Assembly: GCA_963747455.1 (NCBI GenBank)
Contig: CAVVEW010000001.1
Coordinates: forward strand, 32,005-96,004
Length of the DNA: 64,000 bases
DNA from: an uncultured Candidatus Saccharibacteria bacterium
Lineage (GTDB): Bacteria > Patescibacteriota > Saccharimonadia > Saccharimonadales > Saccharimonadaceae
Reading direction: 5' to 3'
Below, one piece after another: positions 5,129 through 46,745 of this stretch (positions are counted from its first letter, which is position 1; every line of letters begins with the position of its first letter). The position numbers were made by a program, and so were the translations under genes. The notes below the pieces were generated by a model. That model ran no database searches. It saw nothing but the letters and a program-made list of their open reading frames with translations, and was not told where the DNA came from.

Positions 5129-5159
5129 ACTATACCGCAAATGGTTAAAAAAGTCAATA
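5129..5159 (-). promoter_or_regulatory. sigma70-type promoter, conserved cassette copy a
   Basis: Minus strand reads TATTGACTTTTTTAACCATTTGCGGTATAGT. -35 TTGACT (5152-5157), 17-nt spacer, -10 TATAGT (5129-5134). Lies upstream of the lipoprotein gene. Confidence 0.45.
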
Positions 5160-5228
5160 CCTATGTGATTTTACAAATGTATTGCTAGGGGGCGCGAGGG
5201 GGTTTAAGGCCGGTTCCGGCTACATGGT

Positions 5229-8225
5229 CTATCTGGCGGTCGATAAGGTATTCATTTGGTGTTTCGACAGCACCTTAACTCGCGAGTGCCTGGGGGTCCC
5301 CGCCGGTACGCGCACACCGAATCTCGGGTCTTCGCTATCGTCGATATGGGTATTCATGTAGTAAATTTCTTTATGGATAGGAGGACGTGGGTCGGTAGGA
5401 TCGAGGTACGATGCAAGGACATTCATGATACCGCGCTCACGATCTTTGATGCGACCCTTGAGCATTGGGTTTGATTGAGCATCTTCGATGGCACGGAGGA
5501 TGGCCTAGTCGCCTCTTTTCAGGAATACTTTCACGGAAGTCTTCATTACGGTAGAGCTGCACCATACGTCCGAGCTCGTCTGGATCCATTGTTGACATGC
5601 GTTCTGGATCGTATTTACCACTGTTTGATTCGTATGCAATTAACTGTTCACTCATCGTGCTGAAGCCCTGCTCAGCCTTTACGCGGTATTGACCAGATTC
5701 CATGAGTGATCGCTGGGTTGAGGAGACGTAGCCAACCTTGAGTGGTGAGTTTGCGATTGCATCATTCATAATCTGCTGCATGTCACGGACATAGGTAACT
5801 TCTTCGCTATTTGCATCACCAACCAACGTTTTCGATCCATCCGTATTTACCTTGAAGTACGTATCGGTCGAGTCATCTCGCTCCAGTCCAAGTGTTGCAG
5901 ACCAGTCAATAATCTTCTGCGCCGCCCAGTTATTCCCAACGCCATTCATGACGCGTTGAATAGCAGCATGAATCTGGATCTCGTTTGCCTCAGATCCGTC
6001 TCGCATTTTCTTGTTCTCAATCACATTCATGAGCTCTTGTGCTTCATACCCTTCGTTCGTGTAGACGGAGTTGTAAGCTTTGACGTTCTCCATATGGAGG
6101 GCAGAGTGCTCGGAGCGTGCTTTCGCAAGCACCTTATCGGCACCAAGCTGATCGATACCACCGGCATATTCACGCGCGGACTGATCTGTGCGGAGGCGCT
6201 TCACTTCATTTGACTTGATCATGGTATCTGCGCTTGATTTACGCTTCTCTTGCTGGGCAATATCAAAGGTCAATTGGCCGAGGCGTTGCGTACGATCATC
6301 CATGGTTTGGCTACGAAGGTATTCGTCGACACCTTTTTGGAGACCGTCAAACTCGCTACCCTGGTAGCTGTTGACGCCGGCTTCCATCTCTCGGATGATT
6401 GCTTCGAACTTGTCTTCATCACGTTTCGCCTGGCTCTTGAGTTCGCGGGTGTTAAGTGTTGCGCGGTGAACACCCTGGTCAAAGTGGTGGCTGGTTGGGT
6501 CGAGCCGATTTTGCCAGTGTGCATCACCTGCAGCCTCAACTTGACCTTGGAACGTCTCAGCCTGCTTATGGAAGTCATGCGAATCGATAGCTCGTGTCTG
6601 CATGCGACGTCCGTAGCGACTCGATTCTTCGGCGATTTCGCGCTGACGAGAGGCATCTTGCCTGTTGTCGAGATACGACTCGTTGTCTTTTTTGGTCGCA
6701 TCGCGGCGGCGCTTTTGCTGGTCAAAGCGAAGGCCGAGTCGGGCTGCACCGCGGCCACGTGGGCTGAAGCGGCTGAGTTCGCCGTTTCGTCGGCGCTCGA
6801 CATCTTGCGCGGCATTGGCGAGCTTGTTGCTCTTGTGCATATCGGCATTGTCTTGTGCCCAGTTTCTCGCTCGGTCGGTTAGCCCCTTTTGCTTGTTGTT
6901 CGCCATATTGGCGATCTGACCGAGTACACCTGTGCTGAGGCGAGTAAGGAATGGCGTCAGAGCGAGCGGGATGACCTGGACGGTGAGACCGATGAGGAGC
7001 AGTGGAATCTGCATGGCTTCCGTGGCGTCTTTTGCTGTGCCGATAATTGCCGCCCCTGCGAGTTGCGACGCACCAAAGAGGAGGGCAAATGCTGGAAATA
7101 TGATGAGAAGGTTGGTAAATAGCTTGCGCCATTTGTCAAAAATCCCACGCGTGCTCGGTAGGATAAATGCGATAAATGCCAGTGGTGCGACGGCGGTCAA
7201 GACAACAATGAGCGCCTGGCGTGCTGCTAGGACGACAAAGGCTGCGAGTACGGAAAGCGCTGCGGATATCAGGGCCGCAAATATGATGAATCCCATCGAG
7301 GCCGCACTACCACCTGCTGCTGCAGCAAAACCGGCGATACCAATCGTGCCACCACCGAGTATTACGGCAGTCATGCTCGCCCAGTCAATATCTGTTGCTA
7401 CGGTATAGTTTTCTCTAATATTTACGAGGATTGCCTGAATTGAATATCCGAGAAGGTTTGAGGCATCGACTGCAAGGGCGCAGATCCAGAATGAGACATT
7501 GACGAGGATTGCGCCGATGATGAGCCGCGGTACCATGTCCTTGATGTTGTAGTTTGAGTATCCGGCGCCGGTAATCTGAGAGTAGATAATCACCATGAAA
7601 ACGATAAGGAAGGCGACGTTTGCGATATTACGCATAAGCTCCCAGAGCTGGTAGATTGCACTGTCGGTGGTGCTGATGGTTTGTACTTCGAGGAAGTTCG
7701 AGACGATGCTATATACCCAGTCGATACCGTCTGCGAGGTAGTTTGACAAGCGGACAGACCATCCAGCCTACGCCATCGATATTACAGTTGTTGTTGCCGG
7801 TTTGATTGGTGTCTTGCGCGTCGATAGTAAGGTCACGCGTGACGGTGACGGTTTGAGGGTTTGATGCTGCTGCAGTGAGGTAGTTGCCGCTGACGATTGG
7901 ATAGGAGATGAGGATGGCGCTATCTAGCCTGAGCGGGGTTGTCGGGGCCAAAGTACAGGACATTTGCCATCAGCGAATTGCCCGATCCTGAGCGCCACTC
8001 GTATTCATTTGGGGTGTCTGTTCGATCGGGGGGTGCGGTTACTTTGGTGTAGACACTGCCGTTGTAGGTTAGCTCGGTGCCCTTCCAGATAGCATCAGCA
8101 GCAAAGGCCTCCCGCGCGAGCGGTCCGACCGTGGTGAATGCCGGCATGAGAAAACTCAGTGCCAGTAGAATAATAAAGCGCCGAAAGTGTACCCTCGGCG
8201 CGCGTTGTTTACGCGTAACCCACAT
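5229..8225 (-). CDS. giant VirB6/TrbL-like polytopic T4SS protein, paralogue 2 (frameshifted)
   Basis: Main ORF 5437-7749 (770 aa) with MVPRLIIGAILVNVSFWICALAVD and FDKWRKLFTNLLIIFP. The N-terminal ectodomain is in ORFs 7920-8225 (signal peptide MWVTRKQRAPRVHFRRFIILLALSFLMPAF) and 7709-7963 (CNIDGVGWMVCP). The C-terminus continues in ORF 5229-5465 (AILRAIEDAQSNPMLKGRIKD..) after an extra G near 5500. Confidence 0.65.
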
Positions 8226-8234
8226 TACCTACCG

Positions 8235-8265
8235 ACTGTACCATTTTACAGATGAAAAGTCAATA
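8235..8265 (-). promoter_or_regulatory. sigma70-type promoter, conserved cassette copy b
   Basis: Minus strand reads TATTGACTTTTCATCTGTAAAATGGTACAGT. -35 at 8258-8263, 17-nt spacer, -10 TACAGT at 8235-8240. Only 9 nt separate the -10 from ATG 8225, so the leader is very short or absent. Confidence 0.45.
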
Positions 8266-8350
8266 CTTTAAGGTGTATTTCACTACGTACTTTGACGGCT
8301 GCGACCAGGTATTGCATAAATCGCTTATCTCACCTATTCTAGGAGGTAGG

Positions 8351-8735
8351 ATGAAACTCAAACAAACATTCCTCGGTTTTGCAACATTTGCTGCTCTCGT
8401 AAGCAGCTCGCTTGCTGTAGCGCCTAGTGCTCACGCCCTCGAATGTACCGTCCTTCCAGATAGTATCTGTGGCAAAGCAGATAACGGTACACTCGAAAGT
8501 AGCGGTACATGGGCGTTGTTGATCTTTATAATCCAGCTGCTGACAGCGGGTGTTGGACTGGTCGCTGTGGGTATGATTGCCTATGCGAGCTTTTTGTATA
8601 CCACCGCGCAAAGTGATGAATCGCAGACCAAACAAGCTAAAGAAATGATACGAAATGTTGTTGTCGGACTACTGGTATATGCCTTTATGTGGGCAGCTGG
8701 CACAGTGGCTCATACCGGGAGGAGTATTCGCATGA
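8351..8735 (+). CDS. VirB2/TrbC-like T4SS pilin paralogue P1 (frameshifted, fused to next ORF in this assembly)
   Basis: AGGAGG then ATG 8351. Signal peptide MKLKQTFLGFATFAALVSSSLAVAPSAHA, then a two-helix hairpin. A 1-nt shift near 8695 restores ..LAQWLIPGGVFA with TGA 8733-8735 overlapping the next ATG. As given it reads through (ORF 8252-9154). Confidence 0.5.
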
Positions 8736-9154
8736 TTCGGCAAATGATGAGCGCATTTTTGATAACGGCATCGCTCGCGGGAGTGGTTGCGGTCGCGAGT
8801 CCAGCGCAAGCCTCCGCGGCCTGTGGCCGTCTCGTCACCTTCCCTGCTTGGTATAACGGCTTAACAGATAAAAATTGTGAGCTTAAGCCAGTTGGACAAG
8901 CTGACACAAGCACCGAGGTAACACTGAAAACTTTTATCGTACGCATCCTCATGAATATTATCGAGATGATTTTACAGCTCGTTGCCTATGCGGCGGTCGT
9001 CATGCTGATCATCGGTGGCTTCCAATACATCACGAGTACTGGTGACTCTGGTAATATGTCCAATGCCAAAAAGACGATTCTCAACTCTATCATCGGTTTG
9101 ATTATCTCGCTATTTTCGGTGGCGATTGTAAATATAATTGCGAATGCGTTTTAG
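8732..9154 (+). CDS. VirB2/TrbC-like T4SS pilin paralogue P2
   Basis: GGGAGGAG RBS then ATG 8732. Signal peptide MIRQMMSAFLITASLAGVVAVASPAQASA. C-terminal hairpin LVAYAAVVMLIIGGFQYITSTGDSGNMSNAKKTILNSIIGLIISLFSVAIVNII. Confidence 0.6.
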   Translation: MIRQMMSAFLITASLAGVVAVASPAQASAACGRLVTFPAWYNGLTDKNCELKPVGQADTSTEVTLKTFIVRILMNIIEMILQLVAYAAVVMLIIGGFQYITSTGDSGNMSNAKKTILNSIIGLIISLFSVAIVNIIANAF

Positions 9155-9157
9155 GCT

Positions 9158-9451
9158 ATGAAAGAACTTCTCTATTTAGCAGCAACAAAGTTAGACGCAG
9201 GATCTGTGGGCATACCGAAGGTTGATGCCGATGGAGCTTCGGTTGCTAAGTTGCTCAACGTCGTCTATTTTTGGGCGGGCATGATTGCAGTTCTTGTGAT
9301 TGTTATCGCAGGATATTACTTCGTGCTTTCAAGGGGTGATGCAAACCAAGTCACCCGTGCACGAAATGCCATCATCGCGGCCGTGGTCGGGTTGATAGTC
9401 ATACTCATGGCATTTACCATAACGCAATTTATTTTAGGAAATGTTGGATAA
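9158..9451 (+). CDS. VirB2-like pilin paralogue P3 (no obvious signal peptide)
   Basis: 97-aa ORF. Hairpin VYFWAGMIAVLVIVIAGYYFVLSRGDANQVTRARNAIIAAVVGLIVILMAF matches the shared core of its neighbours. Confidence 0.55.
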   Translation: MKELLYLAATKLDAGSVGIPKVDADGASVAKLLNVVYFWAGMIAVLVIVIAGYYFVLSRGDANQVTRARNAIIAAVVGLIVILMAFTITQFILGNVG

Positions 9452-9460
9452 GGAGACTCT

Positions 9461-9829
9461 ATGTTAAAAAAATTACGCTACACACTCGCCCTCGTTGGCC
9501 TCGGCACGACAGTATTGTTGGCACCAGCAGCACCAGCACACGCCATAAATCTATTTCCCGACTGTAAAGGATCGAGCACGGCAGTGTGCAAAGCGACAAA
9601 TAATGATAACGCTTCGTCGCTGATACAAGATATTATCAACGTGTTGCTCTTTGTTATCGGCGCGGTGGCCGTAGTGATGATAATCATCGGTGGTATCAGG
9701 TACACTACCTCAAACGGCGATTCAAATAGAACAACCGCTGCAAAAAACACGATACTGTACTCTGTAGTTGGTCTGGTGGTAGCAATTATGGCCTCGGCTA
9801 TAGTAAACTTTGTACTATCGTATTTATAA
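9461..9829 (+). CDS. VirB2/TrbC-like T4SS pilin paralogue P4
   Basis: AAGGAG RBS. Signal peptide ending APAHA. Core VLLFVIGAVAVVMIIIGGIRYTTSNGDSNRTTAAKNTILYSVVGLVVAIMASAIVNFV. Confidence 0.7.
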   Translation: MLKKLRYTLALVGLGTTVLLAPAAPAHAINLFPDCKGSSTAVCKATNNDNASSLIQDIINVLLFVIGAVAVVMIIIGGIRYTTSNGDSNRTTAAKNTILYSVVGLVVAIMASAIVNFVLSYL

Positions 9830-9853
9830 AGTTAATAAGAAACGGATTTACTC

Positions 9854-10717: not shown

Positions 10718-10740
10718 GAAACCTACTAGCGCATCTTAAT

Positions 10741-12151: not shown

Positions 12152-12239
12152 GGAGAGGTGACCGAGTGGTTTAAGGTACTTGTCTTGAAAACAAGCGTGG
12201 GGCAACTCACCGCGAGTTCGAATCTCGCCCTCTCCGCCA
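12152..12239 (+). tRNA. tRNA-Ser (anticodon TGA)
   Basis: GGAGAGG acceptor, anticodon stem-loop CTTGT-CTTGAAA-ACAAG, long variable arm, T-arm GCGAG-TTCGAAT-CTCGC, encoded CCA. TATAAT at 12123-12128. Confidence 0.9.
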
Positions 12240-13187: not shown

Positions 13188-13280
13188 GGAGGAGTACCCA
13201 AGTGGCTGAAGGGGACGGTTTGCTAAATCGTTAGTGTGGGGAGACCTGCAGCGGGAGTTCGAATCTCCCCTCCTCCGCCA
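13188..13280 (+). tRNA. tRNA-Ser (anticodon GCT)
   Basis: GGAGGAG acceptor, anticodon loop TTGCTAA, long variable arm, T-arm GGGAG-TTCGAAT-CTCCC, encoded CCA. Confidence 0.9.
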
Positions 13281-14728: not shown

Positions 14729-14805
14729 GCACCCGTAGCTCAGCTGGATAGAGCATCGGCTTGCGGAGCCGAAGGCCATAGGTTCGAATCCTGTCGGGTG
14801 TACCA
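14729..14805 (+). tRNA. tRNA-Arg (anticodon GCG)
   Basis: GCACCCG acceptor, D-arm TAGCTCAGCTGGATAGAGC, anticodon stem-loop TCGGC-TTGCGGA-GCCGA, T-arm ATAGG-TTCGAAT-CCTGT, encoded CCA. Confidence 0.85.
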
Positions 14806-20811: not shown

Positions 20812-20903
20812 TGGCGGAGAGGAAGAGATTCGAACTCTCGGTACGAGTCGCCCCGTACACACGCTTTCCAAGCGTGCGCCTTCAACCGCTCGGCCACCTC
20901 TCC
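20812..20903 (-). tRNA. tRNA-Ser (anticodon GGA)
   Basis: Minus strand reads GGAGAGGTGGCCGAGCGGTTGAAGGCGCACGC-TTGGAAA-GCGTG..., long variable arm, GAGAG-TTCGAAT-CTCTT, CCA. Confidence 0.9.
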
Positions 20904-21065
20904 ATAGTTTCCTATTGTACAAAATTCATTCGACTCATACGAGCCCAATAGACAGGCGCAGCGCCGCGTGCTCCTATCGCTTAGCTCTTCCGCCTCCTCA
21001 CCGACAAATAAGTAAACTTATTGTCGATTTCGCTCGGCTCCACCAACCGCTCGGCCACCTCTCCA
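20904..21065 (-). repeat. repeat upstream of tRNA-Ser(GGA) ending in a 22-nt copy of the tRNA 5' end
   Basis: CAACCGCTCGGCCACCTCTCCA at 20883-20904 (tRNA 5' end, plus strand) recurs at 21044-21065. The interval contains GGCGGAAGAGCTAAGCGAT, related to the E-repeat core, and a second degenerate copy GTGGAGCCGAGCG. Confidence 0.5.
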
Positions 21066-21147
21066 TTAGAACCTAGTATACACGAGTGAAAAATACATCA
21101 CGGTCATGGTTGCTCTCGTTGCAATTGGCAGTGATAATAGATAGAAT

Positions 21148-22008
21148 ATGCCGACCAAAAAACCTATTATCCGTTTGAACGGTCTCGTAAAAAAGTACGG
21201 GATTGGTGACGCTGAGCACCGAGCACTCGATACGGTCGATTTATCGATCGATGCGGGTGAGTTCGTGGCTATCATGGGGCCGTCGGGATGCGGCAAGACG
21301 ACGCTACTCAATATCTTGGGTCTGCTCGACCGTGCAGATGATGGCGAATACCTACTCGACAACGAGGACGTTGAGCAATTCTCTGATCGGCGCCGTGCAC
21401 ACGTTCGCTCAAAACAAATCGGCATCGTATTTCAAAACTTCAACCTGATTGATCGCATGACCGTAATCGAAAACGTCGCCCTTCCTCTGACCTATCATGG
21501 TTTGCGGCGTACAAAGCGCCTCGAAGCTGCGAGCCAATCGCTCAAGACATTTCATCTCTCTGAGCGAGAGTATTATCTGCCCCATCAGCTATCTGGTGGA
21601 CAAATGCAACGCGTGGCGATCGCACGTGCGCTCGTAAACAAGCCTACCCTCATCTTGGCCGACGAGCCAACTGGTAATCTCGACAGCCGCTCAAGTCACG
21701 TCATCATGGAAGAGCTAGCGGATTTGCACCGTCGTGGAAACACAATTCTTATGGTGACTCATAATCCCAATCTAACAAGTTATGCGAGTCGTGTAATCAA
21801 CATGCTCGATGGTCGTGTGGCGAGTGACAAGAAGATTCGGGTTTCGGCGGTATCGGATGTCCAGAAGATTACGCTCCGTACACCGAAGAAGACGAAAGCC
21901 GAGGAAAAGCCTACGAAAAAAGCGACGAGTAAGAAAAAGTCGACCAAGACCGCAACAAAGAAGCGAGTGACCGCAAAAAATGCGAAGAAAAAGGAGAAAA
22001 CGTCGTGA
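21148..22008 (+). CDS. ABC transporter ATP-binding protein (MacB/LolD-like) with Lys-rich C-terminal tail
   Basis: Walker [10 protein letters not shown], signature [15 protein letters not shown], Walker [13 protein letters not shown]. 60-aa K/T-rich tail. Confidence 0.85.
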
Positions 22009-25157: not shown

Positions 25158-25685
25158 TCAGTAGCGAGTACTCTCGCGCCGCTCGTCGACAAGCCGAAGC
25201 GCGGCGTTGCGCATCACCTTGTTCGCCTCTGTACGAAGATGGTTGACTCTGTTGGCACTCAGACCCATCTGAATGCCGAGCTCCATGGCGGTGAGGATCG
25301 AGCCGCCGTCCATGCCAGACCGCCGAAGGACGACCTGAAGCTGAGTTCTGGTCAACTGACGAAGAAGCCAGCTGACGTTTTGCTCAGTGCTCAACCATTC
25401 CCTTTCGTCCTCGTAGAGCGCGCGAAGTTTTTGCGCCTTCTTGTGACCTTCCGCGTCGATCTTCGCAGGCAAGAGGGTGGCAATCAGCTTCTCGCACTCA
25501 GCCGGCCTAAGCTTGCTAGGAACGTGTGGAGCTTGCGCGGTGAGTGACTCAGCAAGTTCGCGTACTCGCCCCGGATTACGGAGGGCCCGCTGAAGATCCC
25601 ATTCCCTCACGCCGAGAGCCGCGAGCGCCTCAATGAGAGACGTCGCCGTTGAAAGTCGTACATCGTCGGTATCGATGGTGACCAT
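25158..25685 (-). CDS. GC-rich orphan: HTH protein with sigma-70 region-4-like C-terminus
   Basis: GGGGAGG then ATG 25685 (the longer track ORF 25158-26198 is an out-of-frame extension over groEL). The C-terminus LTRTQLQVVLRRSGMDGGSILTAMELGIQMGLSANRVNHLRTEANKVMRNAALRL has the spacing of sigma region 4.2 (L..RE..VL.LR.G.....T..EIG...GVS..RV.Q....A...LR). Confidence 0.5.
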   Translation of the reverse strand: MVTIDTDDVRLSTATSLIEALAALGVREWDLQRALRNPGRVRELAESLTAQAPHVPSKLRPAECEKLIATLLPAKIDAEGHKKAQKLRALYEDEREWLSTEQNVSWLLRQLTRTQLQVVLRRSGMDGGSILTAMELGIQMGLSANRVNHLRTEANKVMRNAALRLVDERRESTRY

Positions 25686-25757
25686 CGTACCTCCCCTTCG
25701 TGAAATGTTGCCCTGAGGGCAACAACGAAACTCCCGCTTAAGCAAGGAGTTGAATGA

Positions 25758-25786
25758 ATTATATAACTTTATATAAAAAAAAGCAA
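25758..25786 (-). promoter_or_regulatory. sigma70-type promoter of the sigma4-like gene
   Basis: Minus strand has TTGCTT (25781-25786), a 17-nt spacer and TATAAT (25758-25763). The -35 overlaps the groEL terminator stem. Confidence 0.4.
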
Positions 25787-25808
25787 GACCGTCGCAAAAC
25801 GGTCTTGC
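25783..25808 (-). terminator. groEL terminator
   Basis: GCAAGACC gtcgcaaaac GGTCTTGC, followed on the minus strand by T8. Confidence 0.7.
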
Positions 25809-25825
25809 TTTCGCAGAGGGTGAAT

Positions 25826-27470
25826 TTACATCATCCCAGGCATGCCGCCACCCATTGAAGGCATCGATGATTCCTTCTCTGGGATATCGACGACGAGGGC
25901 ACCCATAGTTGCTGCGGTGCTCGCGATAGATACGGCATTTTGCACAGCTTCTTTGGTGACGCGAGTTGGGTCGATGACACCGGCTTTTTTGACATCGATG
26001 AGGCCTTTGTCGGGTGCCATGACATCGACACCCATACCAGCCTTGGCTGACTTCAACCTGTGCCAGGAGCGCTGCAGAATTGAGGCCAGCATTTGCGGTG
26101 ATCTGCAGGAATGGCTGCTTGAGCGCATCACGGACGACTTGGCGACCAGCGCTTCGCTGTCGCGCCGTCGACCTTGATGCTGCCTGCGAGGTTGACAAGT
26201 GTTACGCCACCACCAGCGACGATACCTTCAGCGAGTGCGGCTTTTGTAGCGGCGACGGCGTCATCGACGCGGAATTTCTTCTCATCGATCTCGGTTTCGG
26301 TTGCGCCACCGACTTTGATGACGGCGACTTTGCCGCCGAGTGCTGCCGCACGCTTTTCGTACTGCTCTTTGTCGTATTCGCTGCTGGCGTTTTCGGCTTG
26401 AGCGACGATTTGCGTCAGACGAGCCTTGAGCTCTCTGGCGTACCAGCACCTTCGATGATCGTCGTTTCGTCTTTGCCGACGATAACTTTGCGGGCTGTAC
26501 CGACTACTTCGAGGCCGACGTTTTCAAATGTCAGACCTTGGTCTTCGCTGATAACCTGTGCACCGACAAGTGTGGCGATATCGGCCATGATGTCTTTGCG
26601 GCGGTCACCGAACGACTGGCGCCTTGACGACGACAGTGTTGAGCACACCCTTTGAGCTTGTTGAGTACAAGGATACTGAGTGCTTCCCCGTCGACTTCGT
26701 CGGCGATGAGCACGATGTCTTTTTTGCCAGCTTGCGCCAATTTTTCGATCAGCGGCAATAGCTCTTGCGCACTCGAAATCTTTTTGTCGGTGATGACAAT
26801 CGATGGTTTTTCGTAGACTGCTTCTTGGCGATTGGAATCAGTCACGAAGAATGGACTTGCCCAGCCTTTGTCGAGGCTAAATCCTTCGACAACTTCGGCT
26901 TCCATGTCGAGGCTTTGGCCGGCTTCAACCGTGATGACGCCGTCTTTGCCGACTTTTTCCATAACGTCTGCAATCAGCTTGCCGATCTGGCTATCACCAG
27001 CAGAAATCGTCGCGACTTCAGCGATACGATCACTTTTGCCTTCGATTGATTCGCTCAGGCCATCGATGCTTTTGACAATCTCAGCGCCCGCAGCTTCGAT
27101 GCCTCGTTTGAGTTCCATCGGGTTGTGACCAGCGGCAATCAGGCGGTTGGCTTCGTTTAAGATGTGGTACGTCAGTACTGTTACGGTCGTCGTACCGTCA
27201 CCGGCTACTTTGTTGAGCTTGCTCGCAGCCTGATTTGATAAGCTCTGCACCGACTTTGTAGCCGAGTGTTTCGTCGTCTTCCTCTGGTAGGTCAACGCCT
27301 TCAGCTACCGTTACACCATCGTGTGTGACCGTTGGGCCGCCGTAGCCTTTGGCAATCACAACATTGCGGCCTTTTGGCCCGTAGGTTACCTTGACTGCGT
27401 CGTAGAGCGCTTTTGCTCCGCCAAGTACACGAGCGCGCGCATCATCATCATAAAAAACTTTTTTTGCCAT
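25826..27470 (-). CDS. groL: chaperonin GroEL (at least 4 frameshifts in this assembly)
   Basis: AGGAGGAACC then ATG 27470. [38 protein letters not shown].., [39 protein letters not shown], and a C-terminal GGGMPGMM repeat. Pieces lie in ORFs 27198-27515, 26531-27295, 26415-26648, 25158-26198 (part) and 25826-26131. The first break lies at TTT 27234-27236. Confidence 0.9.
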
Positions 27471-27916: not shown

Positions 27917-27943
27917 TTAGCACTCGTCAAGCGCGAGTGCTAA
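27917..27943. promoter_or_regulatory. CIRCE operator (HrcA binding site) upstream of groES-groEL
   Basis: TTAGCACTC-gtcaagcgc-GAGTGCTAA is a perfect match to the TTAGCACTC-N9-GAGTGCTAA consensus. Confidence 0.9.
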
Positions 27944-29174: not shown

Positions 29175-29254
29175 AGGTACGCTATTAGCATAACAATTAT
29201 AGTCAGTTTTGTCAACCCTACTGGCATACCTACGGAGTATGCTTAAATAGTCAC

Positions 29255-31212: not shown

Positions 31213-31295
31213 TTTTTCCAATTAGAAGACCCCGCAGGGGTCTCCCACTCTCCTTTCGGATCGTAGTTGTCTTGCGGGGTAGTGCCTGAGCGAGC

Positions 31296-32129
31296 TCAGG
31301 CGGGTTGCAGTGCCTCGGGCATGACGCCAAGAGCCTGCAGGCGGAGGATGGTGAACGCGAAGCCACGACGGACCCACACCTCTGAGGTGTCGGAGCATTC
31401 TTGGCTGAACTGCGTTCGGGTCAGGCTCTTGAACTCAGCAGCACCGTCCTCGATGTCGAGACCGGAGCCCCATGCCACGTCGACGAGCTGCCCACCGAGC
31501 TGGATGTTCTCGTAGTGCCAGTAGTTGCGGTGGCCAGAGAACTGCCAGTAGCCGAGGATGAGCTCGACTTCCTTGGCGGGACGGTAGTGGCAGCCAGTCA
31601 TCTCTCCAAGATCGGCGAGTCTCACCCAGCCGCGCTGACCACGACGACGCTCCCGCGCCTTCATGCTCAGTCCTCGATGGGTTGCGAGAGGCTGTCGGGC
31701 GTAGTTGAGCCTGGGGATGTTGACTCCACGGCCCAGCTCGCCCTTGTGAATCATGCGGGCGTACTCCAGGGTCTTGCGACCACTGGGCTTGACCTGCCGT
31801 CTCGGCTGGTCGACATCCTCTTCTTCTGCGCAGACGTAGCCGAACGGCTTGTCGCTGATGTAGAGCACGTCGGGGGTGCTGTAGAGCGAGCTCAGTGTGA
31901 TGCTCTCGAGCTGGCTGTGGTCGATGCCGACGAGCCAACTGTAGTAGCCGGGGATGAGCGTACGCTCCATGACCCACATGCCGTTCGGTACGACGAAGGG
32001 GGTCTTTTCGATCACCTCATCAGCGCCAGTGTATGTACGGGGCTTCAGGCCGGACTTAATGTCCGGGTCGAGCACCCACTTCTTCTTCGTGAACGTCATT
32101 CCCTCGGGGTTGTCGGTCACTTGAACCAT
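31296..32129 (-). CDS. GC-rich orphan protein, 277 aa
   Basis: Intact ORF with RBS GGAG. Line 31621-31680 is 41/60 G+C. No family recognised. About 120-nt leader behind cassette promoter c. Confidence 0.5.
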   Translation of the reverse strand: MVQVTDNPEGMTFTKKKWVLDPDIKSGLKPRTYTGADEVIEKTPFVVPNGMWVMERTLIPGYYSWLVGIDHSQLESITLSSLYSTPDVLYISDKPFGYVCAEEEDVDQPRRQVKPSGRKTLEYARMIHKGELGRGVNIPRLNYARQPLATHRGLSMKARERRRGQRGWVRLADLGEMTGCHYRPAKEVELILGYWQFSGHRNYWHYENIQLGGQLVDVAWGSGLDIEDGAAEFKSLTRTQFSQECSDTSEVWVRRGFAFTILRLQALGVMPEALQPA

Positions 32130-32263
32130 CTCCTATGCGATACTATCGGTATATTCGTGAAGCGTATCGCCACCCCACGAACTCGCCACCTGATGCGACG
32201 AAGACAAGAGCTATCCAGCTCCTCTCTTCGCCCCATCAAACGACTCTGTTAAAGAACAGATAT

Positions 32264-32294
32264 ATATTAGCATAAATAGTATAAAAAGTCAATA
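32264..32294 (-). promoter_or_regulatory. sigma70-type promoter, conserved cassette copy c
   Basis: Minus strand reads TATTGACTTTTTATACTATTTATGCTAATAT. -35 at 32287-32292, 17-nt spacer, -10 TAATAT at 32264-32269. Confidence 0.5.
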
Positions 32295-32329: not shown

Positions 32330-33645
32330 TTAGCTCGAGTGCATTTCGCACTTCACCGGCTTCGTCCCACGGATGGACTTCCCAGAGGCACTGTCGTCTT
32401 TTTCGCCGCCAGATCCTATCGCACGTTCGATGGTTTTTTCGTGGCCTTTGCCGAGCAATATGACGACATCGTCTTTGCCTGAAACTCTGGTCATCGCGAA
32501 TTTGATAGCTTCTGGGCGGTCGAGTATGAGGAACATGTCTTTATCTTTTACTTTGCCGCTTCGCTCTGCACCTTCGGCGATTTGGATGAGGATGAGATTG
32601 CCGTCGATATCGCGGTCGTCTTCTTCGGTCAGGACGACTTCATCGCAGTATTTACCAGCAATTTCACCTTGGGTCCATCGCTTGCCTTCGTCGCGGCGGC
32701 CAGCTGAGCCAAATACCGCGATCAGTTTGCCCTTGGTGCTTTTTCGTAAATCACCGAGCAGTCGTTCGAAACTATCTGGCGTATGCGCAAAGTCGACGAT
32801 GACGCTAAAGTCTTGTCCTTCGTCGATGGTGTCCATGCGGCCTTCAACGCCCTTGAGGCTCGCAATTCCCTGCTCGATCTGTTCTTTTGATAGACCGAGA
32901 TGATGGCCGACAGTCACGGCAGCGAGACTATTTGATACGTTGAATTCACCAGGAATATTGCAGCGGATGTCGTAGCTCGTTTCGCCGATGACTGCGCTGT
33001 ACGTGCTGCCGTCACCCTGCATGTCGATAGTCGTGTGCCTGGACGTCACCCTTTGCGATACCGTAGGTTGCGCTGTGGTCGATGGCTCCAGTGAAGATAT
33101 CTGCACTCGGATCATCGGCGTTTACGACACCAAACCCGCCACGTTTGTTTGCCAAACGAAACATCGATGCCTTTGCGTCGCGGTAGCGTTCAAATGTCCC
33201 GTGGTAATCGAGGTGCTCATGGGTAATGTTCGTCATGACGGCGATCTCGTACGGGATACCCCAGACGCGGTGCTGCGCGAGCGCATGGCTGGTAGTCTCG
33301 AGTACGACCCAGTCAGCTCCTTGTAGCTTTGAACTCTTTGAGGCGGCGATTTAACAGAGGTGCCGATACGGTCGTCATGTGTGCGACTTGAGGGGTAATG
33401 TCATTGCCGACACCGTAGGCAACTGTTGTCATAAGAGCAACATTATAACCAGCATCAGCGAGCATCTTGTGAATCATGAAACTCGTCGTCGTCTTGCCGT
33501 TTGTGCCTGTTACACCGATGACATGCATGCCGCGTGCAGGAAAGCCGTAGCGGGCACTCACGAGCATTGCTTCTAGTTTGTGTCCTGTTGGTTCGATAGC
33601 CTTAAAGACGCTCATGGGCATGAGCTTTTTTAGGAGTTGTTTCAC
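32330..33645 (-). CDS. murE: UDP-N-acetylmuramoyl-L-alanyl-D-glutamate--(L-Lys or meso-DAP) ligase MurE (at least 2 frameshifts)
   Basis: GTG 33645 overlaps the upstream stop (GTGA). VIGVTGTNGKTTT P-loop, then ..TNITHEHLDYHG.. (ORF 33012-33236), then ..DFAHTPDS..FGSAGRRD.. (ORF 32330-33115). Confidence 0.75.
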
Positions 33646-34718
33646 GCTTTCAGTACCTCTTCTAGTAATATTTCGCTTGTTAATTTTCCGTTCGTCGACT
33701 TCGTGCGTAAAGTGCGGGCCGAGCAAGAGTACGACGTCATCTTTTTTGGCTGAGCGGAGGGTCAACTCGATCGACTGCTTCAGGTCGTCAGCATGGTAGC
33801 GTGCCGTTGACTTCCTCGCCCCTTGTGACGGTCACATGGTCGGCTCTGAGTCGAGAGCATGTCGAGCGTGTCGCTGTCGAAACTATCATCACAGGCGATG
33901 AGCAGACGGCGCTTGGCAATCTGCTTGAGTGAGGCCGTGACGAGATCTGCTGAACGAGATGACGGAGCACCATCGACATAGAGGGAGTACGGCTCATTGA
34001 GCGGCAATTGCTCGAGATTTCCTCGGACGGTTTCGAGCCGAGCAATCCCCTCTTGGAACTTAGAAATATCGAGTCCTAGCAGATAGCCAGCGGCGACTGC
34101 TGCGGCGACATTGTAGGCATTTGCCTTGCCAAGGAGGTAGGTCGACAGCGTCAAATTGGTTTGGTGGTCAATTGTTACTTCAATTTCTGTGCCTTTGCGA
34201 TACAGTACGACATTTCGCAGGTATGCTTCGGCAAGTTCGCTGTCGCCAAAGCTGATTTTTTGATGTGGTGCGATGGCCAAGCCTTCGGTGGCCATGCCTT
34301 CAGGAATCACGACATACGCTGACGGTGTTTCCATCACTTGCTTAGAAAGCTCGCCTTCTGAGGTGACGACCATCATTTCTACCTGGAGTGTCTCCAGTAC
34401 GCAGCTACGCAAAATAGCCGGTGTGACCGCCATGACGACCGTCTCAGCTCGTTTTTTACTCTTTGAGATGGCTCGTTGGACGGCTTCGGCGCTGGCATCG
34501 TAGCGCTCTGGGTAAGGTTCGCCATCGATGTGACTCGTTCTGTCGGTAAATACTGCAGCTGTTTGGGCATTTTCCCGTAGGAGCTCGCCGATATAGAGAG
34601 CTGTCGTCGTCGCACCGTATTCCCCCACTACCAGTATCAGCCGGACGTTACGCGACGGGTGGTTGTAACGCAATGCAGCCTTTTTGGCTCGAGCTTTCCC
34701 AAAAAAATCTCGCTTCAT
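33642..34718 (-). CDS. Mur-ligase-family protein with degenerate P-loop (frameshifted C-terminus)
   Basis: ORF 33780-34718. LILVVGEYGATTTALYIGELL occupies the GxxGKT/S position. The C-terminal ..DDVVLLLGPHFTHE.. piece is in the frame of ORF 33313-33765, and the natural end ..LLEEVLKA-TGA is in a third frame. Confidence 0.5.
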
Positions 34719-39926: not shown

Positions 39927-40014
39927 GGAGAGGTGCAGGAGTGGTTGAACTGGCCGCTCTCGAAAAGCGGTAAGCCGCAAGGTTTCGAGGGTTCGAATCC
40001 CTCTCTCTCCGCCA
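39927..40014 (+). tRNA. tRNA-Ser (anticodon CGA)
   Basis: GGAGAGG acceptor, anticodon stem-loop CCGCT-CTCGAAA-AGCGG, long variable arm, T-arm GAGGG-TTCGAAT-CCCTC, CCA. Terminator hairpin at 40018-40058. Confidence 0.9.
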
Positions 40015-42656: not shown

Positions 42657-42721
42657 CGGGCCTTCGTTATCGTAATAATCTCACCATACTATACAGGAGC
42701 TAAAACTATAGATAAAGCTGG

Positions 42722-43859
42722 CTATACTCGTTTAGACCGAGCGTCAATGTAGTCGATAATCTTTTGTTTGAAGGCAGAAACATCGAAACGCTCGGAGCTT
42801 TCATGAAGGCTATTTACATCAAAAGTGATTGATTCAGCTTGTTGAATAGCCCCGACAACGCTCTCGACAGTTTGCTGATCAAACAAGACACCGGTTTTTC
42901 CATCTGTCACGATATCGAGGGCGCCACCAACGCCATACGCAATCACGGGCGTTCCACCTGCCATCGCCTCTACAGGAGTAATACCGAAGTCTTCCTCGGC
43001 GGGAAATAGCAAACCGCGGGCAGTGTTGTATGCTTCGGTGATACGGGCCTGGTCCACGGCCGAGGGTGTTCCTGGATAAAACGACACGGTTGGCCCGGCC
43101 AGCGCGACGAGCTTGGTCATGTTCGCTGCCGTCGCCAAACACCCGAAGCGGCAAAGAAAGTTCATTCGCGGCCAAGATTGCAAGGTCGAGCCGCTTGTAG
43201 GGAATATGACGCGAAAGTGCCATATAAAAATCACTTCGTTTTTTTGAAGGCGTAAATCGCTTTGTGTCGACAGGCGGATGTATCACATCGGCGTTTCGCT
43301 CATAGTACTGTTGTATGCGACGAGCCACGCTACTAGAGTTGCCTATAAAATAGTCTACCGATTGAGCGGCCTGAAAGTCGGCGCGCTTAAGGCGAGGAAC
43401 AAAGAGCGGCATCGTGAGCCGGATGAGCCAGTTCAGCCTCCCAAAGCCGGGGTCGGATCGGTATTGCTCGTAATGGCTCCAGTAGTAACGAATCGGCGTG
43501 TGACAGTAGCAAATATGTACTTGGTCGTCGCGCGTTTTGCGGACCTGTTTTGCTTCGGCGCTAGCGCTCGAAAGGATGACATCGTACTCCGACAGGTCAA
43601 GCTTGCGAAATGCATGAACACGAAGCATGGGAAAAAACTTATGCAGCTTGCGCAAGGGGCGCGGCAATCTTTGTAGATATGTTGTTCGTACGTCGGCATT
43701 TGCAAACGCCGGAACGTATTCCGGGGTGTATACGCTGGTATAAATTGGCGCGTCAGGGAAGGCCTCGTGAAATGCGAGCACTACTTTTTCTGCGCCGCCC
43801 ATGTTTGTCAGCCAGTCACAAACGATCGCTACTCTAGGTTGGGATTTTGTCGTACTCAT
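42722..43859 (-). CDS. glycosyltransferase family 4 (frameshift near 43180)
   Basis: ORF 42879-43859 (N-terminal domain, VAIVCDWLTNMGGAEKV) plus ORF 42722-43234 (..LLFPAEEDFGITPVEAMAGGTPVIAYGVGGALDIV..). Confidence 0.7.
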
Positions 43860-43886
43860 AAGCTCGGGTATAATTATATACTAGCT

Positions 43887-44312
43887 ATGAAAAGAATTAT
43901 TGTTAGTGGATACTTCAATCCACTTCATGTCGGTCATCTGGAAATGATGGAAAACGGTCGCCAGCTCGGCGACTACCTTATTGTGATTGTGAATAACGAT
44001 CAGCAACAGCTGCTGAAAAAAGGCAAGATTATCATCCCAGAGCAAGAGCGTCTACGTATTGTGCGCGCACTGAGAATTGTTGACGAAGCAGTTCTGTCGA
44101 TTGACTCCGATTCGCCAGTTTCGAATACCATCCGCCAATTAGCCGAAAAATATCCTTCGGACGAACTGTTATTTGGAAATGGCGGAGACAGAAACACACA
44201 AAAAGCCGTGCCTGAAACCGCTGTGTGTGAAGAATTTGGTATCGAAATGCGTTTTGACCTAGCGGGGCAGCTGGATTCGTCTACGCGAATCAATCAAGAA
44301 CTTGATCGCTAA
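43887..44312 (+). CDS. cytidylyl/adenylyltransferase-family protein (HxGH nucleotidyltransferase)
   Basis: MKRIIVSGYFNPLHVGHLEMM carries the GxFxxxHxGH motif. 141 aa. TATAAT at 43869-43874. Confidence 0.6.
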   Translation: MKRIIVSGYFNPLHVGHLEMMENGRQLGDYLIVIVNNDQQQLLKKGKIIIPEQERLRIVRALRIVDEAVLSIDSDSPVSNTIRQLAEKYPSDELLFGNGGDRNTQKAVPETAVCEEFGIEMRFDLAGQLDSSTRINQELDR

Positions 44313-44352
44313 CTGTTATTCACGGTTCAGCGGTATGCTATAGTCTAGATTA

Positions 44353-45786
44353 ATGCGCCGATTGGGTAAATTAGAAGTAATTGCATTTGTCACAGGATTT
44401 AGTCTGATGGCGTTTGAGCTTGCTGCTGCTCGTATACTTGCTCCAACAATTGGCAGCTCAACATATGTATGGACGAGCGTGATTGGTGTGATCATAGCGG
44501 CACTCAGTGTCGGATATTATGCCGGTGGCATCGTCGCCGACAAGCGCAACTTGGCAGCCGACGTCGCCTGGATGTTGCTCTGCTCGGCGGCTACCGTAAC
44601 GCTGACACTGCTTATTTACGAGGATCTACTCGATTCTGCGATGCACTGGCAGGTCGACGTACGCTTGCAGGCGGTGATCGTCGCGACGGCGCTGTTTGCG
44701 CCAACCAGTTTTGTGCTGGGCATGATTAGCCCATATCTTGCCAAGCTCAATGTTCGTTCACTATCTGCGTCGGGACGGTCTGTTGCATCACTGAGCGCGC
44801 TCAATTCTATCGGTGGCATCGCCGGTACGTTTGTGACAGGGTTCATTCTATTTAGTTATATCGGCTCTCGGGAAACAATCGTACTCGTTGCGCTCATGCT
44901 CCTGGTGGCTAGCTGGGTTATAGTGCCAGAGTATAGGCGTCGTTTGCGAATTGGACTGACTGCTGCGGTGCTCGTTATCATTTTTTTCTCGGATAGCTCG
45001 GTCGAGGACAGTTACTCATTCGCGCTCGAAACGCCGAGCGCACATTATGAAGTACAAGAATTCGTCTATGACGGCCTACGTGTTCGCGGTATCAGGACGG
45101 GCCCGGGAAGTATCCAGTCTGGAGTCGATATGAGTGGTTCGAGCACGCCGGTGTTTTGGTATACCCAGCAGCTCGCCCAGCTGACTCTCGACGAACAGCC
45201 GCAGCGGGTACTCGTACTGGGTGGGGGAGCATTTACGTTGCCAGAGTATCTGGGGGAGCAACTGCCAGAGGCTACTATAGATGTCGTCGAAATCGACCCG
45301 GATCTCGCACCAATCGCGCGAAACTTCTTTTATTATGACGATCCGAGCAATGTGAATCTCATATTTGACGATGCGCGCGCCTATATAAACCAGACGGATA
45401 AGCGTTACGATGTGATCATCGTCGATGTGTATGGCGATACGAGTATTCCGTTTTCACTCATGACGCGCGAATACGGCGAGGCAATCGCCGCACACCTACA
45501 AGATGACGGTGTCGTGCTGGCTAATATCGTCGGAGGTACGGTTGGCGAGTGCAGAGGGGTGTTTGATGCTTTGAGCTCAACGTATCTGAACGAGTTCAAG
45601 TACGGTCGGTACAGTACTCAGCAGCCATCGCGCGAGTTGCGCCGAGGCAATATCATAGGAGTGTATACCAATCGCGATGATGTCGACTACGGTGTGCCAA
45701 TAAAACGCATAAACAAGACGGTGTATACCGACAACTTCACGCCGTCCGAACGCCTGTACTACCAATGTCTCGCGGCTACGACGTAA
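44353..45786 (+). CDS. membrane-fused spermidine-synthase-like (aminopropyl/methyltransferase fold) protein
   Basis: N-terminal half has at least 6 TM helices. The C-terminal half has VLVLGGGAFTLPEYL...IDVVEIDP...YDVIIVDVYGD, the spermidine-synthase-type SAM-fold motifs. Confidence 0.6.
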   Translation: MRRLGKLEVIAFVTGFSLMAFELAAARILAPTIGSSTYVWTSVIGVIIAALSVGYYAGGIVADKRNLAADVAWMLLCSAATVTLTLLIYEDLLDSAMHWQVDVRLQAVIVATALFAPTSFVLGMISPYLAKLNVRSLSASGRSVASLSALNSIGGIAGTFVTGFILFSYIGSRETIVLVALMLLVASWVIVPEYRRRLRIGLTAAVLVIIFFSDSSVEDSYSFALETPSAHYEVQEFVYDGLRVRGIRTGPGSIQSGVDMSGSSTPVFWYTQQLAQLTLDEQPQRVLVLGGGAFTLPEYLGEQLPEATIDVVEIDPDLAPIARNFFYYDDPSNVNLIFDDARAYINQTDKRYDVIIVDVYGDTSIPFSLMTREYGEAIAAHLQDDGVVLANIVGGTVGECRGVFDALSSTYLNEFKYGRYSTQQPSRELRRGNIIGVYTNRDDVDYGVPIKRINKTVYTDNFTPSERLYYQCLAATT

Positions 45787-45832
45787 TCCTGATATAAAAA
45801 TAACTCACAGTATATGTGAGTGTGGTGGGTGG

Positions 45833-45865
45833 CCGGACGAGAGAGCGACGTGCTCTCTCGTCCGG
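45833..45865 (-). terminator. 14-bp GC-rich hairpin terminating the GC-rich islet genes
   Basis: CCGGACGAGAGAGC gacgt GCTCTCTCGTCCGG. A second hairpin CTCACA-gtatat-TGTGAG and a T-run follow on the minus strand. Confidence 0.6.
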
Positions 45866-45880
45866 CGTGCACCCGGTGGA

Positions 45881-46282
45881 TCAGGCGGTCTGGGCGTCGA
45901 CGCGGGATGCGACGACGATGTAGCCGATCTCGTTGTCCTTGCAGAACTGCACGAACGCCTCGTAGATCTTCGTCTTCGTGCGGATGCAGAGGCTGGCCGG
46001 CACGGTGCTGTCACCGTAGGCCAGGGCGTAGATGTAGTCGAACACGAGCACGTCGTGCTCGGGGTTCGCCCAGCCCTCCTCGGCCTGCATGGCCTTCACG
46101 ATGTCGCCGAAGGCCTCGATCTGACCGGGCGTCAGCGGCGCGTCCTTGATGACGATGGTCTTGCCGGCCGTGTCCATCTTGGCAGCGCTACGGTTGCCCT
46201 TCTTGAAGGGCTTGCGCCCACGGCGGGTGGACTTCTTGGCCTTGGCCAGGCTCTTCGTGGCCATCTCGGTGTTAGCGGTCAT
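45881..46282 (-). CDS. GC-rich orphan protein, 133 aa, Lys/Arg-rich N-terminal tail
   Basis: GGAAGGA then ATG 46282. MTANTEMATKSLAKAKKSTRRGRKPFKKGNRSAAK.. plus a globular C-terminal domain. Line 46081-46140 is 42/60 G+C, against 15/60 in flanking line 46321-46380. Confidence 0.5.
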   Translation of the reverse strand: MTANTEMATKSLAKAKKSTRRGRKPFKKGNRSAAKMDTAGKTIVIKDAPLTPGQIEAFGDIVKAMQAEEGWANPEHDVLVFDYIYALAYGDSTVPASLCIRTKTKIYEAFVQFCKDNEIGYIVVASRVDAQTA

Positions 46283-46332
46283 GGCAGGGATCCTTCCGGG
46301 TGCTAATCGCCGGGTGCGATTATGTATATATA

Positions 46333-46363
46333 ATATTACTACAAATAGCAAGAAAAGTCAATA
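46333..46363 (-). promoter_or_regulatory. sigma70-type promoter, conserved cassette copy d
   Basis: Minus strand reads TATTGACTTTTCTTGCTATTTGTAGTAATAT. -35 at 46356-46361, 17-nt spacer, -10 at 46333-46338. Confidence 0.5.
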
Positions 46364-46453
46364 CTCCAGAAAAGGAAACAGGCTCACCGACGGAGCTCTA
46401 GCTGATGGATCGAATCCATCGGCAAGCCTGTTTCCGTACGGTGAGCCGTTGGC

Positions 46454-46672
46454 TCAGGACTGCTGGCCGATGCGCGCCTTCTCGGCGCGCTTCGCCTCGC
46501 GCTCTTCGTGCTTGGCGAGTCGCCTCTTGATCTCACCAGCTGACTGGCTGACCATGAGGACGACACCGATGCAAACCACGACGGTGCCAAGTCGGTCGAA
46601 CTCCAGTCCGGCGCGGGCCAGGGCCCAGAGGAACAGCATGGCGCCGATGGTACGAGTGATCATTACTGCCAA
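46454..46672 (-). CDS. GC-rich small membrane protein, 72 aa
   Basis: MAVMITRTIGAMLFLWALARAGLEFDRLGTVVVCIGVVLMVSQ (two hydrophobic helices) plus a basic tail EIKRRLAKHEEREAKRAEKAR. Confidence 0.4.
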   Translation of the reverse strand: MAVMITRTIGAMLFLWALARAGLEFDRLGTVVVCIGVVLMVSQSAGEIKRRLAKHEEREAKRAEKARIGQQS

Positions 46673-46714
46673 CTTTCGTCGAGGGATGTATCCAGGCGAG
46701 TCCTGGTCTATTTC

Positions 46715-46745
46715 ACAATATCACAAATAACAACAAAAGTCAATA
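46715..46745 (-). promoter_or_regulatory. sigma70-type promoter, conserved cassette copy e
   Basis: Minus strand reads TATTGACTTTTGTTGTTATTTGTGATATTGT. -35 at 46738-46743, 17-nt spacer, -10 TATTGT at 46715-46720. Confidence 0.45.

Follow-up and report, generated by a model that had tools for sequence, protein, structure and literature searches.

Housekeeping promoters of the SigA (sigma-70) type may carry a TRTG motif at position -16 that extends the -10 element, a Gram-positive arrangement described for Bacillus subtilis. To our knowledge, the promoter grammar of Saccharibacteria, which belong to the candidate phyla radiation (CPR), is essentially undescribed, and we did not find a published study of Saccharibacteria transcription starts in the literature. 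At the level of translation, riboswitches and other regulatory leaders such as preQ1-II and SAM-II sequester the Shine-Dalgarno (SD) sequence. Here, we analyzed 64 kb of DNA from an uncultured Candidatus Saccharibacteria bacterium (the window), in which an 11-nucleotide (nt) sequence, TATTGACTTTT, marks five promoter-like sites that we designate a to e. Sites a and b precede genes of a type IV secretion system (T4SS), and sites c, d, and e precede three GC-rich islets. A Gram-positive-type T4SS locus has been described for Saccharibacteria and the CPR, as in TM7x (bioRxiv 10.1101/2022.03.25.485537).

An exhaustive search of the window recovered exactly five copies of TATTGACTTTT, all on the minus strand (5149-5159, 8255-8265, 32284-32294, 46353-46363, and 46735-46745), in agreement with an original prediction made from the letters alone. 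The 9-mer TTGACTTTT occurs at the same five sites and nowhere else. When one mismatch to TATTGACTTTT was allowed, a single extra site appeared (48871-48881, minus strand), inside the gene for ribonucleotide reductase (RNR). Dinucleotide shuffles of the window contained a mean of 0.02 copies and never reached five, so that the enrichment over a shuffled background, which the prediction had proposed as a check, was borne out. The same-strand pattern carries little weight because sites a and b share one gene cluster and sites d and e adjoin each other, leaving about three independent loci. We also considered a DNA-uptake sequence and rejected it: there are only five copies, none lies outside a promoter architecture, and none forms an inverted pair.

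The architecture of the sites is that of a promoter. Each has TTGACT, which matches TTGACA at five of six positions, then a spacer of exactly 17 nt, as predicted, and then a TAnnnT hexamer (TATAGT, TACAGT, TAATAT, TAATAT, and TATTGT for a to e, respectively). All five are intergenic and correctly oriented, with fitting distances from the -10 hexamer to the start codon (62, 9, 143, 50, and 51 nt in the same order). Units a, c, and d have a clear purine-rich SD-like sequence, and unit e has a weak one. The window holds four other TTGACN-N16-18-TAnnnT sites, none of which has the TA..TTT flanks. When 230 nt around the five copies were aligned, identity collapsed outside approximately 31 to 40 nt. 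The sites resemble SigA promoters of the -16 TRTG type in TTGACx, the 17-bp spacer, TAnnnT, and an A/T-rich upstream region; a candidate TRTG or TG lies one base upstream of the -10 hexamer in b, c, and e and in the Saccharibacteria consensus. Specifically, TG stands at -15/-14 in three sites, namely, b (ATGgTACAGT), c (TATGcTAATAT), and e (TGTGaTATTGT); a has GCGG instead, and in d (TGTAG) the TG is displaced. A difference from that type is the phylum-specific preference for (T)A before TTGAC and for a run of A or T that follows the hexamer without a gap, with the T-run form kept at T4SS genes.

We conclude that sites a to e are probably five separate, functional, near-consensus housekeeping promoters of the sigma-70/SigA type. 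The shared 11-mer is best read as an extended -35 consensus in its T-run form and not as the relic of one copied cassette. Judged from sequence, transcription would start at all five sites with SigA as the factor, and the promoters would be strong and largely constitutive. Each promoter would head its own transcription unit: a, an operon for a T4SS lipoprotein, the second TrbL-like protein (TrbL#2), and PrgI; b, a leaderless trbL#1; c, a conserved module in which promoter and structured leader precede a GC-rich open reading frame (ORF); and d and e, two small orphan genes rich in GC at third codon positions (GC3), each followed by a terminator hairpin.

To place the five sites among other Saccharibacteria promoters, we used 96 intergenic TTGACN-17-TAnnnT sites found in Saccharibacteria loci totaling approximately 1.1 Mb. 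Sorted according to the protein encoded downstream, these sites make up 51 independent families. The consensus was weighted by family; an unweighted version was disregarded, being dominated by 32 orthologous copies of the promoter of a family designated h107. The weighted consensus reads antA-TTGAC-A/T, a W-rich stretch, and TTATGnTAttAT, with A at -1 (68%), T at -2 (44%), and A (52%) or T (36%) at the sixth -35 position. In its general form, (t)A-TTGAC-W-rich...TTATGnTAWWAT, it offers a usable consensus drawn from the window and its relatives. The TA flank, the A/T-rich stretch past the -35 hexamer, and the TTATG element are, on this sample, a phylum-wide consensus, and the spacer sequence that c, d, and e have in common is a putative Gram-positive-like TRTG/-16 element (TTATGnTA...). 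The similarity of these three spacers (TATTTGT..TAATAT), noted in the original prediction, is real, but it matches the general Saccharibacteria consensus and is not specific to a cassette.

Saccharibacteria promoters occur in two forms, a T-run form (TTGACTTTT) and an A-type form (TTGACAAA or TTGACAATT), which are exchanged within sets of orthologous promoters. The h107 promoter, the only promoter orthologue common to both sets, reads TTGACTTTTT in loci L002 and L023 (loci of related genomes carry L numbers) and TTGACAATT, without the T-run, in the window (39014, minus strand). Among promoters of the islet c family, the T-run is found in 4 of approximately 16 copies, and among trbL promoters in 4 of 6, with L112 as a switched case. 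Two further promoter-like sites with TTGACA in the window, at 29218 (minus strand) and at a tRNA-Ser gene (39821, plus strand), are without the T-run.

Conservation at orthologous genes separates the five sites into lineages. Promoters at orthologous genes were found for a, b, and c; d and e have no usable homologues. Counterparts of promoter a read CTTGACTTTTTCATCAATTTAGTGTAGTAT in L110, CTTGCATTTTT.. in L113, and ATTGCTTTTTTT.. in L109. Promoter b has near-identical counterparts upstream of trbL in L113 (ACATTGACTTTTCATCTGTAAGATGGTAATGT), L109, and L110, all of which retain ATTGACTTTT and the TAAAATGGTA spacer. Homologues of promoter c precede the same gene family in L084 (ATATTGACAATTTATACTATTTATGCTAAAAT), L092 (TATTGACTTTTTATAAC..), and L090 (TATTGACTTTTTTG..), with further orthologues in L085, L083, L081, L088, and L089. 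Because each has orthologous promoters with their own spacers elsewhere, a, b, and c would have been inherited with their own genes. The window copies are not more alike among themselves than they are like orthologous promoters of other genomes: the promoter nearest to b is that of L113, and those nearest to c are the c promoters of L084 and L092 and the h107 promoter of L023. The idea of a 31-bp cassette by which foreign ORFs were wired to the promoter type of the secretion machinery is not supported by this comparison.

Promoters a and b serve a conserved T4SS locus of the Gram-positive/CPR type that occupies 0.5 to 12.8 kb of the window and encodes PrgI, two TrbL_3/VirB6-like proteins, and several pilins (Pfam PrgI and T4SS_pilin). 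As in the described CPR-type loci, pilins, two TrbL_3/VirB6-like genes, and a PrgI/VirB3-like gene are present, in the order seen in L109, L112, and L113. In those loci, TraC-like and VirB4 genes follow PrgI; judged by this synteny, the position of VirB4 would fall beyond the start of the window, and the operon of promoter a probably extends past it. The window differs from such loci in two respects: VirB4 lies outside it, and in this assembly frameshifts interrupt the lipoprotein gene and the two trbL genes. Specifically, trbL#1 is split over three frames (8225-7923, 7936-7748, and 7800-5440). A near-identity search of plasmid and phage collections with the T4SS end of the window gave no match, and a first scan of genome contigs with the TrbL-like protein did not find relatives.

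The start of trbL#1 argues for the reality of promoter b. In tblastn searches, residue 1 of the trbL orthologues of L110, L113, and L109 aligns at 8225, the ATG that follows the -10 hexamer of b after 9 nt. In all six genomes compared, the gene has an ATGTGG start 6 to 10 nt past the -10 hexamer (window 8225-8240, minus strand; L109, 7954; L110, 1008; L111; L112, 6704; L113, 7962). The predicted mRNA is accordingly leaderless or nearly so, in a conserved arrangement. That the ATGTGG start keeps its distance in six genomes is good indirect evidence that promoter b is real. Approximately 25 to 50 nt inside the trbL coding region, a GC-rich hairpin followed by TTTATTATT (8178-8201, minus strand) looks like a terminator or attenuator. 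A conserved promoter of another sequence, TTGCATAAA, serves the pilin operons. The divergent pilin operon promoter of the window (8266-8350, plus strand) reads TATTGCATAAA..N..TATTCT and is not of the T-run type; its counterpart in L109, at about 7903 (minus strand), reads TTGCATAAAA..TATGCT.

The T4SS promoters also supply the points that weigh against an explanation by general consensus. Related genomes contain only 2 copies of TATTGACTTTT in 80 loci (approximately 1.3 Mb), at 2 of 112 promoter-like sites, and the window has it at 5 of its 8 TTGACN-N17-TAnnnT sites; by these counts, the excess in the window exceeds what the general consensus predicts. Furthermore, T4SS promoters keep TTGACTTTT even in genomes with no more than 36 to 60% protein identity to one another, and TTGACN-17-TAnnnT sites in three T4SS loci have it in 6 of 6 cases. 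This conservation in divergent genomes suggests selection on the T-run itself. Conceivably, ATTGACTTTT defines a dedicated class of co-regulated, T4SS-linked promoters, at which either a regulator contacting the T-run beside the -35 hexamer or a second sigma factor would co-express the secretion machinery with accessory or orphan genes; the islet proteins would then be effector or cargo candidates. We consider this minority reading unlikely; in its favor is the association of the T-run with T4SS genes across genomes. Four of the six genomes have the T-run at trbL, and all 4 genomes with the promoter of the lipoprotein operon have it there, twice after a variant -35 (TTGCAT or TTGCTT). The exact 11-mer stands upstream of a gene for a VirD4/TrwB-like coupling protein in L040, and L109 has a third T-run copy beside its T4SS cluster, before a gene for a 628-amino-acid (aa) protein. 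Of approximately 6 T-run families, 4 are T4SS linked, compared with an estimated 2 or fewer of approximately 44 others, although this count was made post hoc and the genes downstream of the other families were not systematically annotated. The identical 11-mer also heads all three islets of the window, and a GC3-rich orphan in L006 (GC3, 0.86) has GCATTGACTTTTT.

Other features of the T-run promoters speak against a dedicated regulon. The motif is not invariant among orthologous promoters, which switch between the T-run and A-type forms (trbL of L112, the c family, and h107) as interchangeable variants would. It is enriched at T4SS genes, yet it also occurs upstream of a GT2 glycosyltransferase gene, a gene for a small membrane protein, h107, and unknown genes, and it is absent from the pilin promoters of the same machinery. 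The promoters have no motif in common beyond ATTGACTTTT, they contain neither a palindrome nor a repeat resembling an operator, and we found no regulator. In family searches, the proteins of islets c, d, and e had no recognizable secretion signal or effector domain. What the signature of a regulon looks like in this window is shown by a perfect CIRCE (controlling inverted repeat of chaperone expression) element over the groES promoter. A fuller version, in which ATTGACTTTT marks a Saccharibacteria-specific regulon that joins trbL, the lipoprotein operon, and the coupling protein of the T4SS to GC3-rich orphans such as islets c, d, and e, secreted as effectors or cargo on an actinobacterial host, with islet c gated by its leader, appears to us quite unlikely. 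If a T4SS-linked regulon were real, the T-run would offer a sequence handle on effector candidates where effectors are unknown. On the favored reading of ordinary housekeeping promoters, the window and its relatives provide a set of native promoters of presumably very high strength, one of them conserved and leaderless, that could serve new genetic systems for epibionts.

The three islets are distinct in composition: the GC3 of their ORFs is 0.79 (c), 0.94 (d), and 0.81 (e), compared with 0.38 to 0.63 for 35 other genes of the window. The claim that two of the promoters serve T4SS-like genes and three serve foreign-looking ORFs is upheld. Each islet is a single-gene unit with its own promoter and a hairpin at its end, and the hairpins after c and d have no T-run. 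As autonomous units of promoter, gene, and hairpin with deviant composition between conserved genes, the islets resemble phage morons. Unlike morons, they lie outside any prophage and among housekeeping neighbors, they have no relatives in PHROGs, phage genomes, or IMG/VR, and the c family holds its GC3 near 0.8 in every genome. Specifically, no match was found for the proteins of islets c and d in phage genomes or for that of islet c in IMG/VR, and none of the three islets has a plasmid relative.

Islet c has the best-documented history. It occupies 1,118 bp between a DDAH-like gene and a Mur ligase gene, which in L017, L020, and L021 are convergent and separated by 7 to 68 bp, as expected of an insertion. 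Its protein family has at least 42 unannotated homologues (P0001 to P0042), and homologue searches returned no actinobacterial or phage relatives. Where the context is visible, Saccharibacteria genes flank the family members, at differing chromosomal positions. The family genes have 60 to 63% GC in each genome amid surroundings of 45 to 50%, and their GC3 stays near 0.8 across deep divergence without drifting toward genome composition. Promoter, leader, and ORF recur as a module in approximately 16 other assemblies, most of which carry TATTGACAAA rather than TATTGACTTTT. An AlphaFold (AF2) model of the protein is of good quality (pLDDT, 89; pTM, 0.85), and a Foldseek search with it gave no significant match in the PDB or BFVD. 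Searches of Pfam, PHROGs, PADLOC, and a PDB sequence profile likewise gave nothing significant.

The transcript of islet c would begin with a structured leader, which is also present in L081, L083 to L085, L087 to L090, L092 to L095, L098 to L102, and L105. Its predicted minimum free energy is -58.8 kcal/mol (z = -5.65 against shuffles). Compensatory changes occur at 13 of 32 consensus pairs, all of them in a long hairpin (P1). A second hairpin, S1 (10 to 13 bp), differs in sequence from leader to leader with its pairing kept: its own pairs average -14.2 kcal/mol, compared with -8.5 kcal/mol when partners are swapped. The loop of S1, GGCGATA, can pair with a TATCGC that lies shortly before the AGGAG SD sequence (a pairing that we call S2), and among 17 leaders this complementarity covaries through four versions (GCGATA/TATCGC, GCGGTA/TACCGC, GCAGTA/TACTGC, and GCGATG/CATCGC). 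Covariation in S1 and S2 was tabulated sequence by sequence; a MAFFT alignment of the 3' domain of the leader lost the S1 register. The 5' strand of S1 also contains a CUYC anti-SD tract that could pair with the SD sequence instead. A covariance model of the leader found matches upstream of family members down to 22 to 27% protein identity and only one match in the window.

The leader is a candidate for a new cis-regulatory RNA absent from Rfam 15. No family of that release exceeded its gathering threshold on the leader, tRNAs alone passed in the window, and the best matches by E value were chance resemblances to microRNAs and small nucleolar RNAs. Six matches to the leader motif on viral contigs were set aside as chance, having neither the S1 helix nor the gene. 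By its pairing options, the leader may act as a translational switch that sequesters the SD sequence, with S1 and a free SD in one state and the anti-SD:SD pairing with S2 in the other. Given the length of S1, the S1 and S2 pairings may form alternately and not together as a pseudoknot. The leader resembles preQ1-II and SAM-II in being a conserved 5' untranslated region (UTR) with covarying helices and a loop that pairs with a strand just upstream of the SD sequence, and it resembles SD-sequestering leaders in having a CUYC anti-SD with two alternative partners. It differs from preQ1-II and SAM-II in the length of S1 and in matching nothing in Rfam 15. This module, with its leader RNA, is the most original material of the analysis. 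It constitutes testable CPR "dark matter," combining a consensus promoter, a covarying leader outside Rfam, and a GC3-rich protein without a fold match.

Islets d and e are closer to orphans. A word-based search found no homologue of the islet d protein, for which HMMER gave a single distant match (P0163, 38% identity), and searches of Pfam, PHROGs, and PADLOC with the d and e proteins gave nothing significant. Their promoters, 382 bp apart, are identical at 31 of 40 nt, including positions past the -10 hexamer, and those of c and d at 25 of 31, a figure that our recount of the original prediction confirmed. All three islet promoters head compositionally foreign ORFs. These promoters, or at any rate d and e, could have been copied from each other, through duplication or recombination of a promoter segment (in effect a small mobile promoter) when GC-rich genes were inserted. 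We regard this as rather improbable. Unrelated Saccharibacteria promoters of different genomes can be just as similar: window promoter c matches the h107 promoter of L023 at 20 of 23 free positions, as well as it matches d or e, and pairs of background promoters reach 17 of 23 or more in 3.7% of cases. Promoter c was inherited with its module, no similarity extends upstream of the 11-mer, and no convincing repeats flank the promoters. The five sites share with mobile promoters an identical core before nonhomologous genes of one genome; they differ in that identity covers only 31 to 40 nt, the length of a functional promoter, that three of them belong to separate orthologous lineages in other genomes, and that flanking repeats are missing. 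Around the islets, a search for target-site duplications and terminal inverted repeats returned only short repeats at chance level. An 11-nt inverted repeat, ACAGTATATGT at 45807-45817 and ACATATACAGT at 46930-46940, brackets the d/e islet and could be due to chance.

Chimeric assembly, or contamination by DNA of, for instance, a high-GC host, is an extremely improbable origin for the GC-rich islets with their promoters: the assembly is error prone, with many frameshift-split genes, and the islets have host-like GC3, but the c module (AT-rich promoter, leader, and GC-rich ORF) recurs in approximately 16 independent assemblies with Saccharibacteria genes flanking it, each islet is a complete unit of promoter, SD-like sequence, intact ORF, and hairpin, and our searches found no actinobacterial or phage homologues.

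Sporadic GC3-rich orphan ORFs (0.76 to 0.89) also occur in L006, L029, L039, and L058, at approximately 23 per 1.1 Mb, a number that probably contains false positives, and none of those in other Saccharibacteria loci is homologous to islet c, d, or e. The orphan of L006 already mentioned (minus strand, reverse complement 20988-21575) encodes 195 aa and has a GCATTGACTTTTT..TAATAT promoter with a leader of approximately 100 nt. A further GC3-rich ORF of the window (57768-58247, minus strand; 159 aa; GC3, 0.79) lies downstream of an FMN reductase gene and has neither a Pfam match nor a TATTGAC-type promoter.

Table 1. Positions of the promoters, their transcription units, and tRNA genes in the 64-kb window.
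Feature	Position	Strand	Description	Basis
Promoter a	5129..5159	-	TATTGACTTTT..N..TATAGT	Motif search; orthologous promoters
5' UTR of unit a	ends at ATG 5066	-	~60 nt with GGAAAGGAA ribosome-binding site	Translation
Transcription unit of promoter a	525..5066	-		Pfam PrgI; tblastn of L110, L113, and L109 T4SS proteins; synteny
Lipoprotein gene	start 5066	-	Lipobox LSGC; frameshift-split	Translation
Second TrbL/VirB6-like gene	1403-4025	-	Fragments	tblastn
PrgI/VirB3-like gene	525-1382	-		Pfam PrgI
Promoter b	8235..8265	-	TATTGACTTTT..AAAATGGTACAGT; whole form AGTATTGACTTTTCATCTGTAAAATGGTACAGT	Motif search; orthologues
TrbL_3/VirB6-like gene (trbL#1)	5437..8225	-		P0043 (100% identical), precomputed PF19590; tblastn
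tRNA-Ser (four) and tRNA-Arg genes	12152-12239, 13188-13280, 14729-14805, 20812-20903, 39927-40014			
Promoter c	32264..32294	-	TATTGACTTTTTATACTATTTATGCTAATAT; TATGc -16 element	Motif search; homologous promoters
Structured 5' leader of islet c	32121..32257	-	~137 nt, from promoter c to GTG	Folding, covariation, covariance model
Islet c ORF	31296..32120	-	274 aa; GTG start at 32120	GC 0.62, GC3 0.79
Terminator-like hairpin after islet c	31226..31244	-	GAGACCCC-TGC-GGGGTCTT	Read from sequence; missed by a scan requiring a T-run
Promoter d	46333..46363	-	TATTGACTTTTCTTGCTATTTGTAGTAATAT	Motif search
Islet d ORF	45881..46282	-	133 aa; basic N terminus; GC3 0.94	Essentially orphan
Hairpin after islet d	45832..45866	-	Perfect, 15 bp (repeat I2, 100% complementary)	
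Promoter e	46715..46745	-	TATTGACTTTTGTTGTTATTTGTGATATTGT	Motif search
Islet e ORF	46454..46663	-	69-aa membrane protein; charged C-terminal helix; GC3 0.81	
Predicted terminator of unit e	46374..46435	-	Compound hairpin, then TTTTCT; directly upstream of promoter d	Inverted repeat I1

The rest of the window has a housekeeping character (FemAB, Mur ligases, TsaD, leucyl-tRNA synthetase [LeuRS], RNR, GroEL, tRNAs, and transporters). The LeuRS of the window shares no more than 75% identity with those of species representatives, and the better-matching loci (51 to 75%) are nearly all metagenome-assembled genomes of Saccharibacteria. These LeuRS matches and the T4SS synteny identify the window as part of a Saccharibacteria chromosome. 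Several genes are split over two to four frames, including both trbL genes and those for the lipoprotein, GroEL, a Mur ligase, and the RNR alpha chain (1403-4025, 4753-5066, 5229-8225, 25158-27295, 32330-33765, and 47089-49510). The public protein P0043 has the same truncation, and the frameshift junctions that we inspected are not obviously homopolymeric. The split genes reflect either many indel errors in the assembly or extensive pseudogenization. Look-ups of exact matches to three window proteins and to P0043 returned nothing, for which the splitting is the probable reason.

The CIRCE operator, TTAGCACTC-N9-GAGTGCTAA at 27917-27943, overlaps the -35 hexamer of the groES/groEL promoter and suggests a heat-shock regulon of the HrcA type; a related GAGTGCTAA lies beside the promoter of an HSP70 gene in L111. 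Finally, four tRNA-Ser genes (tga, gct, gga, and cga) and one tRNA-Arg gene fall within 28 kb, and the promoter of tRNA-Ser(cga) reads TTGACA-17-TAATCT.

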